From IMG/VR virus record IMGVR_UViG_3300028833_002934: a DNA stretch of 17,365 nucleotides. The stretch is one strand, 5' to 3'. This document shows, piece after piece, positions 12,960 through 14,012 of this stretch (its first letter is position 1; each line of letters starts with the position of its first letter). The translations under genes and the position numbers were made by a program. The notes beneath the pieces are model-generated. The model was given only the letters and a program-made list of their open reading frames with translations, made no database searches and was not told where the DNA came from. Source of the DNA: a virus.

Positions 12960-13292
12960 ATGGAATATGCTTGTAAAACTTTAAATGAATATGGAATTAA
13001 ATTATGGTTGTATTTAAGTTAGAATGAAAAGGATTTTGAAATGGCATTTAGTCCATAGGCTTTAATTCAATGGGCTGGTGGCAGTGATAAGAGTTGGCGC
13101 AATGCTAGGGATATATTAATTAAAGAAAGATTTTTAGTGCCGCTGCGGCAGAATTGCTATGAATTTATTGAATATCCTCCTGATATTCCGGAAATTTGGA
13201 GTTATGAGATCGTTCGTGAAGATGTAGAATGGGCGGATGGAGATTTAGTAAGATTAAAAAGTGGAGATTTATGTAAGATTAAGTCGTTTTGA
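12960..13292 (+). CDS. Replication-initiator-like winged-helix protein (RepA_N/DnaD-like N-domain), 110 aa, with 2 recoded TAG codons (13020, 13056)
   Basis: The frame is verified codon by codon from ATG 12960 to TGA 13290. The motif GIKLWLYLSqNEKDFEMAFSPqALIQWAGGSDKSWRNARDILIKERFL resembles the N-terminal DNA-binding domain of firmicute plasmid/phage initiators. The gene ends 3 nt before the iteron array. Confidence 0.45.
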
Positions 13293-13294
13293 AA

Positions 13295-13773
13295 CGTCAA
13301 AAAGGCGGTAAATTTTACCGAGAAAGAGATCGGAAAGTCGGTAAAATTTACCGCCAGTTCGCGTCAAAAAGATGGTAATTTTTACCGAGTTTTTGCCCGG
13401 GTGGCTATAAATACAAAGAAAAAAGGACGGAAACTCGGTAAAATTTACCGTTTGTTGGCGTCAAAAAGTTGGTAAATTTTACCGAGTTTAGGATCGGAAA
13501 GTCGGTAAAAATTACCGAGTTTAAGAACGGGTTGTACCTCATATTTTACAGTTTTAAATAAAATGTTAAAATTTAATATGACTATTTGGCGTCAAAAAGT
13601 TGGTAAATTTTACCGAGTTTCCGAACTTTAATATGGTTGATAGGAAACGTCAAAAAGTTGGTAAATTTTACCGAGTTTTGGGCCGGAAAAGGTGTAGTAG
13701 GGGTTCCCGATTTTCAAATGGAAAATATAGAACGGCGCCTCGAAACGTCAAAAAGTTGGTAATTTTTTCCAGA
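13295..13773. repeat. Iteron array: 9 copies of a ~28 bp repeat cgtcaaaaagNNggtaaattttaccgag, in both orientations; putative origin of replication
   Basis: Six direct copies start at 13295, 13362, 13459, 13590, 13648 and 13745. Three inverted copies (cggaaagtcggtaaaatttaccg) start at 13331, 13428 and 13494. The core GGTAAAtTTTACC is a near-palindrome. Confidence 0.7.
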
Positions 13774-13774
13774 G

Positions 13775-13862
13775 AAAAATAATATTATATTATATTATAT
13801 ATTATATAATAGTAATAATAGTATATATAATATATATAATATAATATAAAAACAATAATTGT
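13775..13862. other. Almost pure A/T stretch of (TA)n/ATATTAT-type repeats; candidate DNA-unwinding element beside the iterons
   Basis: The stretch has about 88 bp with only a handful of G/C and sits immediately after the last iteron. Confidence 0.45.
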
Positions 13863-13924
13863 AAAAATGGAGTAGTGGCGTTATTGGGGCGAGGGGTTTT
13901 GAGTAAGAAGGGGAAGCCGTTTTG

Positions 13925-14012
13925 GAAAATGAAATGAAAAAATGAAATGAAATAGAGGTTTTGAAAAATGAAATGAAAAATAGAGTTTCCAAAAAATGAT
14001 TTGAAAACTCTA
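13925..14012. repeat. Tandem aatgaaatgaaa repeats (3 copies) followed by the inverted repeat tagagttt...aaactcta
   Basis: Read directly from the sequence. GGGG-containing blocks lie between this and the A/T stretch. Confidence 0.4.

Follow-up and report, generated by a model that had tools for sequence, protein, structure and literature searches.

A candidate iteron-type replication origin in a large TAG-recoded phage, with a winged-helix protein and palindromic sites that co-vary

Does a small initiator-like gene followed by an array of repeats and a tract of nearly pure A/T mark an origin of replication and, if so, that of a plasmid-like episome? The question is raised by a viral DNA of 17,365 nucleotides (IMG/VR record IMGVR_UViG_3300028833_002934; "the window" denotes this whole stretch), in which positions 12960 to 14012 were originally predicted, from the letters and their open reading frames (ORFs), to form such a module. 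The layout of the module, a gene for a putative DNA-binding protein, repeated sites and an adjacent A/T block, supports its assignment to the predicted iteron type. We consider it probable, with moderate confidence, that the module is the replication origin of a large phage that decodes TAG as Gln, in the style of lambda O and of the SaPI origins. The overall design is already well known, and origin activity is argued here from sequence and analogy. Contigs carrying related modules are designated by L numbers and homologous proteins by P numbers.

The winged-helix gene and its palindromic sites

The gene, the array and its cores are placed as follows; the cores were located by the core search.

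12864-13292 (+): winged-helix, initiator-like gene; 142 aa, GTG start, three in-frame TAG=Gln codons
13291-13775: iteron array; nine sites, each an imperfect palindrome of 25-37 bp, CGTCAAAAAGnn-GGTAAAWTTTACC-GAGTTT
13307-13319 (+): iteron core 1
13340-13352 (-): iteron core 2
13374-13386 (+): iteron core 3
13437-13449 (-): iteron core 4
13471-13483 (+): iteron core 5
13504-13516 (-): iteron core 6, with symmetric flanks
13602-13614 (+): iteron core 7
13660-13672 (+): iteron core 8
13758-13770 (+): iteron core 9, degenerate (two mismatches), abutting the A/T block
13523-13589: A/T-rich 98-bp spacer (from sequence) splitting the array 6 + 3; comparable long spacer in L004 and L003

The core GGTAAAATTTACC, with at most two mismatches, occurs nine times between 13307 and 13770, against 0.99 ± 1.05 matches in shuffled sequence; none of 200 shuffles equalled the observed nine. 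The array of nine repeats next to an initiator-like gene that the original prediction described is thus real. It is also confined to this place: elsewhere in the 17.4-kb window only two matches were found, at 4582 and 17136, both with two mismatches and attributable to chance. The repeats share a core, as claimed; each site is an imperfect palindrome of 25-37 bp whose consensus with flanks reads CGTCAAAAAGnnGGTAAAWTTTACCGAGTTT..CG, and the core itself is palindromic (CGGTAAA-T-TTTACCG). Judged from the CGAG flank and the central base, six copies are forward and three reverse, in agreement with the six direct and three inverted copies first counted, although "direct" and "inverted" are weakly defined because the core is palindromic. 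Start-to-start spacings of the cores are 33, 34, 63, 34, 33, 98, 58 and 98 bp, irregular as stated before but with a minimum of 33 bp (range 33-98 bp) rather than about 36. The first unit starts at 13291-13295, at the stop of the winged-helix gene (gene end 13292). The spacer at 13523-13589 is a possible second melting site. ORFs at 13348-13542 (-), 13600-13782 (+), 13795-13992 (-) and 14151-14357 (+) were rejected as genes; they lie over repeats or low-complexity DNA and their frames are not conserved.

The module was recovered from seven other lineages, giving eight lineages for comparison. Identities are ~90-100% for L001, L004 and L125, 85% for L002, 57% for L003, 46% for L135 and L136, 38% for L138, 36% for L140 and 35% for L139. 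Gene order is kept in all eight: a ribbon-helix-helix (RHH) gene, a gene of about 64 aa, the winged-helix gene, then the sites. Wherever the sequence extends past the stop, 8-11 palindromic sites begin within ~100 bp, with a recurrent spacing of 31-36 bp, and they are restricted to each lineage's array, save two chance matches of the A/T-rich core in L138. Recognition helices and cores pair as follows.

SDKSWRNAR or SEKSWREAR: core CGGTAAWTTTTACCG (window, L003, L140)
NEKSWRDAR: core CGTAATATTTTACG (L135)
TRKTWTKAR: core GGGTAAAAATTACCC (L143)
SRKSWDTAF: core TTAGTAATTTTTACTAA (L138)
KKDSYYKAK: core GGTGGAAAAAATCCACC (L139)

L140 carries the core of the window despite a protein only 36% identical overall. 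Because the lineage-specific site sequence changes together with the recognition helix, the winged-helix protein very probably binds the repeats and, since the sites show dyad symmetry, it would do so as a dimer. Comparing the window with L004 gives an identity of 97.8% over the 25-bp sites against 90.7% over the spacers (Fisher p~0.001). The non-coding array reaches 94%, more than either the winged-helix gene (89.7%) or the RHH gene (83.3%), a pattern characteristic of a protein that co-evolves with its binding sites.

The gene was first read from an ATG at 12960 with two recoded TAGs. Its end at 13292 beside the array stands; its start does not. An N-terminal extension, M-x-K-x-Y-A-N-Q, is conserved in the family alignment, with N7 and Q8 nearly invariant. 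Because this extension is conserved family-wide, the true start is taken to be the GTG at 12864, in overlap with the stop codon of the 64-aa gene upstream (GTGGCTAA); the product then has 142 aa, with three TAG=Gln codons. The codon for Q8 is TAG in the window and CAA at the aligned position of L003. Database homologues are called with Q at the TAG positions, and their loci fail to give the stored products under the standard code.

The structural model consists of one winged-helix domain and a small C-terminal β domain of ~40 residues ending in Phe, which bears out the winged-helix assignment; in early structure and HMMER runs, homologue P0002 stood in for the TAG-to-Q translation of the window. 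The fold resembles RepA_N 4pta, DnaB 5wtn and the DnaD N-terminal domain 8ojj, and a Foldseek search of viral models returned no match at E<0.02. Once the N terminus is corrected, residues 18-96 match positions 15-97 of the 308 of phrog_186, "DnaD-like helicase loader", at E=0.0016. An exhaustive profile search collected 436 relatives, in most of which the match begins around residue 30-35; those that match PHROGs were collected at E values of 1e-20 to 1e-6. Among the top 150 relatives, 78 match Pfam HTH_36 (E<=0.01) and seven DnaD_N, and the PHROG matches comprise 80 to phrog_270 ("replication initiation protein"), 72 to phrog_186, 23 to the O-like phrog_678 and one or two to each regulator family. 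Longer relatives match replication profiles over 150-250 residues. On these alignments the window protein corresponds to only the N-terminal, putatively origin-binding domain of larger phage initiators; it is a minimal, single-domain initiator-like protein. Judged at the curated gathering thresholds, it fails HTH_36 (PF13730), DnaD_N (PF21984) and RepA_N (PF06970) alike, and among its close relatives, P0006 and the protein of L143 match HTH_36 at E~0.02, with 15 bits where the cutoff is 25. Because the window protein has no Pfam match and its near relatives remain below cutoff, the tie to these families is at superfamily level only.

The A/T block and the case for an origin

Past the last site, the following elements are encountered.

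13776-13863: A/T block, candidate DNA-unwinding element (DUE); 4 G/C in 88 nt; also in L003, L004, L138 and L143
13864-13925 (+): G-run cluster with three GGGG runs, top strand C-poor; conserved in L003, L004, L138 and L143
13926-14006 (+): four AAATGAAATGAAA 13-mer units, each after G-rich/TTTTG sequence; motif also in L003, L138 and L143
13976-14017 (-): 18-pair hairpin then T-rich tail; scores terminator-like for the convergent minus-strand genes
14161-14215 and 14266-14330 (L004 2255-2425; L138 4680-4880; L143 12040-12215): TGTGAGAGAGG motif and hairpin

The ~88 bp of nearly pure A/T that had been pointed out are the least stable 80-mer of the window, with a free energy of -66.8 kcal/mol; the next reaches -76.9, and the mean is -96.4 (standard deviation 6.9). 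The GGGG-rich blocks, tandem repeats and inverted repeat reported beyond it are likewise present. From 13864 to 14012 the top strand is nearly free of C (8 in 149 nt), and the G-run clusters are compatible with G-quadruplex or R-loop-prone DNA beside the A/T block. The AAATGAAATGAAA units, whose period-13 repeats are placed at 13926-13980, may be either DUE-type 13-mers or the tail of a terminator. A hairpin followed by a T-run has analogues in L138 and L143. L003, L138 and L143 all retain the hairpin, the A/T block and the G-run/13-mer unit, with some variation in order; the A/T block of L143 is separated from the 13-mers by two small ORFs.

The conserved non-coding motif downstream, TGTGAGAGAGG..GGC.CGCCCG, is followed by a hairpin of 14-16 bp with a loop of ~35-45 nt; in L138 and L143, compensatory changes preserve the pairing of this hairpin. 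GAGAGAG and CTTTCTC are predicted to pair at long range as well, and Rfam gave no match to the element. Candidate roles are those of an untranslated RNA, of a 3′ untranslated-region element in the convergent gene on the minus strand, or of a hairpin formed by the DNA of the origin.

Three features of phage iteron origins are thus found together: homology to initiators, in the form of PHROG matches whose names are annotations; clustered sites that are putatively cognate, nine against 0.99 expected, with helix and core co-varying; and an easily melted A/T element adjacent to them at 13776-13863. In the mechanism that we favour, the operon would encode an RHH repressor, a 64-aa protein and the 142-aa winged-helix protein, and the full-length products would require TAG suppression. 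Dimers of the winged-helix protein would, as the co-variation suggests, occupy the nine palindromic sites that start at the stop of their own gene. The resulting nucleoprotein complex would destabilise the ~88-bp A/T block or the A/T-rich spacer within the array, and a phage or host helicase would be loaded. This melting and loading step is modelled on the lambda O-some, SaPI Rep and plasmid Rep systems. Because the protein represents only an N-terminal origin-binding domain, recruitment of the helicase might, speculatively, fall to the small C-terminal β domain and its terminal Phe, or to a partner protein. The RHH protein would probably repress the operon at an operator of its own, distinct from the iterons.

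Several observations weigh against this interpretation. No helicase, primase or loader was found among the scanned window ORFs or in the precomputed Pfam tables of the relatives' contigs, and no DnaA box with at most one mismatch between 12.3 and 14.4 kb. With a G+C content of 30%, the genome has many intergenic tracts rich in A/T, of which the next best is 83/90 A+T. In the comparison with RepA_N, Rep_3 and DnaD profiles that had been proposed, the Pfam scan of the window protein gave no match even at E<=1; its relatives match HTH_36, DnaD_N and replication PHROGs. The phrog_186 match is the protein's only direct family match, and a weak one, and PHROG names are annotations, not tests. Neither a recruitment domain nor a partner was found, the protein spanning only positions 15-97 of the 308 in the profile. 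Moreover, an initiator dependent on stop suppression is unexpected for an early function. The proposed check of GC skew also failed to favour an origin. In the window, L138 and L143 alike, both flanks have negative skew, and only the plus-strand island gives positive values; because the flanks share one sign, there is no replichore-type polarity switch at the site. The test covers local sequence and is confounded by gene orientation, so that it cannot separate replication from coding-strand effects. The pattern is compatible with unidirectional replication or with skew dominated by the coding strand, and provides no positive support.

The same protein and array could serve transcription instead. 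A winged-helix regulator coating the nine sites would block transcription, or insulate it, where its own operon faces the non-coding elements or the convergent genes of the minus strand, with no role in replication. The winged-helix fold is indeed common to repressors such as MarR, Fur, LexA and GntR, an RHH repressor heads the operon, and the protein lacks the C-terminal half of full-length initiators; the array also lies between convergent units, near the terminator-like hairpin and the conserved structured non-coding sequence. However, 8-11 palindromes of high-affinity type spread over ~450 bp beside a pure A/T block would make an unusual operator, promoters are free of the core, that of the protein's own gene included, and the top relatives fall into replication-initiator PHROGs (80, 72 and 23) rather than regulator PHROGs (one or two). 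We therefore regard purely transcriptional control as unlikely.

Assemblies from short reads are often broken within the array or directly behind it (L001, L002, L135-L137, L140), as they might be if it were a packaging (pac/cos) recognition region bound by a winged-helix protein resembling a small terminase. Proteins of that class are small, bind DNA and recognise repeated sites close to bendable, A/T-rich DNA. The breaks are, however, accounted for by the repeats themselves, and longer contigs run through the region (L004, L125, L138, L143). No large terminase or structural gene is adjacent, and the Pfam and PHROG scans returned no terminase family, which leaves a packaging site highly improbable.

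Known origins, partition and the plasmid question

The layout of the proposed origin matches two systems that have been studied experimentally, with differences from each. In lambda and Stx phages, the origin contains 19-bp imperfect inverted-repeat iterons bound by O, beside an AT-rich unwinding tract (PMC7466680). The window shares with lambda the multiple sites of imperfect inverted-repeat form, the predicted binding by dimers of an N-terminal DNA-binding domain and the adjacent AT-rich tract (PMC7466680), and 23 of the 150 top relatives match the PHROG "replication initiation O-like". Lambda, in contrast, has four to six iterons of 19 bp inside the O gene, where the window has nine sites of 25-37 bp downstream of the gene, and the C-terminal domain of O recruits P-DnaB, whereas the window protein has only its β domain of ~40 residues. 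SaPI origins carry 6-12 iterons directly downstream of the rep ORF, recognised by a winged helix, with an AT-rich region (PMC9371898). Iterons immediately 3′ of the initiator ORF, in both orientations and with an AT-rich region, are common to SaPI (PMC9371898) and the window. SaPI Rep, however, is a self-loading helicase with a C-terminal winged helix, and the window protein has no ATPase; SaPI iterons are of 5-6 nt and flank a central AT region, whereas those of the window are long palindromes with the main A/T block distal. The A/T-rich spacer that divides the window array 6 + 3 is a partial likeness to the SaPI arrangement.

A GC-rich segment belongs to the RK2-type origin. Iteron-type theta plasmids (RK2 TrfA, F RepE, R6K pi, pPS10 RepA; Rep_3) resemble the module in combining a winged-helix initiator with clustered iterons, a DUE that contains 13-mers and GC-rich DNA nearby (PMC4980987). 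The DUE of plasmid iteron origins contains repeated 13-mers (PMC4980987), which the four AAATGAAATGAAA units resemble. Unlike the window protein, plasmid Reps have two winged-helix domains and bind direct repeats of 17-22 bp as monomers. Such Reps further control their own synthesis through an inverted repeat of iteron halves in the promoter, and DnaA boxes are often required; neither element was found here, by the core search of the window and the search of 12.3-14.4 kb respectively. The tandem WH1-WH2 architecture of Rep_3 is absent, there being no Pfam match at E<=1 and a single winged helix in the model, and in place of tandem direct repeats of 17-22 bp the array has palindromes in both orientations at spacings of 33-98 bp. 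The N-terminal winged-helix domains of DnaD-like, HTH_36 and RepA_N type in Firmicute phage and plasmid initiators are similar in fold, in the HTH_36 and DnaD_N matches of the relatives and in the alignment to the N-terminal ~100 positions of phrog_186 and phrog_270. Unlike those initiators, the window protein stays below all Pfam thresholds and has no C-terminal domain of DnaD/DnaB_2 type. The original prediction is therefore upheld as to an iteron-type layout, with a winged helix, relatives among initiator families and co-varying sites, and not as to its likeness to theta-plasmid or phage-plasmid origins.

A partition centromere would offer another explanation of an array beside a small winged-helix gene. 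Centromeres are repeat arrays bound cooperatively by small dimeric winged-helix or RHH proteins, and here a TubR- or ParR-like protein and its array would segregate a plasmid form of the prophage. The operon does include an RHH gene, and the family profile, compared with PDB sequences, matched only TubR (6tey, E=0.028) and generic helix-turn-helix regulators; no sequence match to a solved initiator structure, whether of O type or another, could be detected. A small winged-helix protein, predicted to be dimeric, with a repeat array is indeed reminiscent of TubR-tubC. The TubR match, however, is not significant, and the RHH protein has a distinct operator of its own. No TubZ, ParA or ParM is encoded beside the gene in the eight lineages, among the scanned window ORFs, in the 14-20-kb contexts of L138 and L143 or in the precomputed Pfam tables of the relatives' contigs. 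In TubZRC systems the array lies upstream of tubR; in all the lineages here the winged-helix gene is followed by the array and then by a convergent small gene, and an A/T block is not part of tubC. Since a centromere would leave both the A/T block and the homology to replication initiators unexplained, and no plasmid relative was found by tblastn among 72,556 plasmids, we judge it very unlikely.

The wider claim, that the element can replicate as a plasmid-like episome, is not supported. Partition genes and plasmid relatives are missing from the searches described above, Rep_3-type features are absent, and the related contigs are very large; the contexts of the relatives consist of many small genes and HNH homing endonucleases on such contigs. 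Nor does the anatomy of the module say anything about lifestyle, because the origins of lytic phages share it.

Operon control, recoding and the source phage

The upstream part of the operon comprises the following features.

12383-12440 (+): operator-like inverted repeats upstream of the RHH gene; GACATACC-GAT-GGTATGTC at 12386-12404 and TGTCGGACA at 12423-12431
12473-12658 (+): RHH repressor-like gene, first of the module; 61 aa, four in-frame TAG, start ATG 12473 inferred from relatives
12677-12871 (+): conserved 64-aa gene, in every related module; stop overlaps the winged-helix gene start (GTGGCTAA)

The RHH protein matches Pfam DUF6290 at E=4e-5, under the curated cutoff, and phrog_876 "transcriptional repressor" at E=5e-7. 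Motifs of the operator-like types recur upstream of the RHH gene in L002, L003, L135, L138 and L143. They contain no iteron core, and the two sequence types are unrelated; the inverted repeats at 12383-12440 are probably the operator of the RHH repressor itself. The core search of the window placed no iteron core at any promoter, including that of the winged-helix protein. Because the core is never at a promoter, control of the operon is apparently delegated to the RHH protein, an arrangement that would resemble CopG-RepB of pMV158. The 64-aa gene, with only four homologues and no recognisable family in the Pfam and PHROG scans, is predicted to be translationally coupled to the winged-helix gene. 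In L135 (5368-5829) and L136 (4014-4475), an RHH domain is fused to a second winged-helix copy (E=9e-14 against the family profile); this fusion could be a regulator that also binds iterons.

In every lineage the RHH ORF meets one to three TAG near its end (window 12647-12680; L002 315-345; L003 315-350; L138 3045-3085; L143 9955-10000). Under TAG=Gln it extends to a TAA in or just after the Shine-Dalgarno sequence of the next gene (AAGGAGTAA). The C terminus of the protein, and possibly translational coupling, therefore depend on the decoding state. Codon 7 of the RHH gene is TAG in the window and CAG in L004.

The window has 30% G+C and dense small genes, the majority on the minus strand, and several of its reading frames are coherent only with TAG readthrough. 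A gene of 780/815 aa at 7978-10425 (-) encodes the shoulder and repeat domains of a major vault protein. Its relatives number more than 6,600: one copy, P0153, 99% identical, lies on an ENA contig of 228,644 bp, and others on contigs of 188-236 kb. The published huge phages LR756500 and LR756501 (462 kb and 735 kb) carry a gene with which it shares 39-41% identity; they have no homologue of the winged-helix module within 20 kb on either side of that gene. The divergent module copy of L143 sits on a 343-kb contig, ERZ28653836 scaffold_33, of 343,268 bp. DNA searches with the module and with the whole window against 50,697 phage records gave no match, nor was there a DNA-level match to GenBank phages or PLSDB plasmids; tblastn with the winged-helix protein against the phages was equally negative. 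Scans of IMG/VR with the iteron 28-mer, protein patterns and the conserved non-coding motif found nothing, and genome contigs scanned with the 16-mer iteron gave only single matches in unrelated bacteria, chance-like and uninformative. ARAGORN found no tRNA, and Rfam only sub-threshold miRNA-type matches to the palindromes. Because of the TAG-readthrough frames, the large-contig relatives of the vault-protein gene and the lack of DNA matches to GenBank phages or PLSDB, we take the source element to be an uncultured TAG-recoded large phage, with related contigs of 188-343 kb.

Other features of the window and its relatives concern gene expression and gene content. In-frame TAG codons are clustered: the blocks 208-3395 and 10499-13292 have one to five per gene, and none is found in the 13 small genes that follow one another at 3392-7883 or in those at 14377-16718. 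This distribution suggests blocks expressible before and after the code switch. A gene at 10913-11521 (+) for a membrane protein of the formate/nitrite-transporter family (Pfam E=5e-18) has five in-frame TAG. L125, L135/L136 and L143 show this gene, possibly one for an auxiliary channel, in synteny with the candidate origin module. A near-consensus promoter of sigma-70 type, TTGAAA-17-TATAAT, lies within the motif TATTATATAATATTTTTTTAAAATTTTCAA (window 12337-12365 (-); L004 2950-3410). The motif recurs upstream of many minus-strand genes and looks like a phage-wide, perhaps early, promoter consensus; strong Shine-Dalgarno sequences occur as well. Genes for HNH_3 and NUMOD4 homing endonucleases occur at variable positions among the small genes of relatives (L127 1604-2203; L138 6117-6734 and 9585-10154) and are missing at the equivalent places of the window; these insertions are mobile-endonuclease polymorphisms.

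All three genes of the origin operon carry an in-frame TAG in one lineage or another, and the near-invariant Gln8 of the winged-helix protein is encoded by TAG in the window. A tentative and rather doubtful extension of the origin proposal is that the origin is gated by the genetic code, its binding protein being made only after the switch to TAG=Gln. Because the initiator would need TAG=Gln decoding, replication from the module would then follow recoding, and a minimal one-domain initiator would recruit the replisome through a new C-terminal β domain and its terminal Phe. Such timing runs counter to the prevailing idea that early and replication genes are exempt from recoding.

GC skew alone usually serves to locate origins in large uncultured phages. 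The present locus provides a concrete pair, a protein and its binding site, that can be tested, and nature supplies variants of its specificity, with five or more different cores. Should the module prove not to be an origin, its co-evolving array would still be a clean natural system for winged-helix DNA specificity. As an origin, it could anchor studies of replication, analyses of copy number and coverage, and the design of vectors for recoded phages of this kind (contigs of 188-343 kb). Finally, the dependence of a replication-type gene on TAG=Gln decoding is relevant to models of the timing of recoding during infection.

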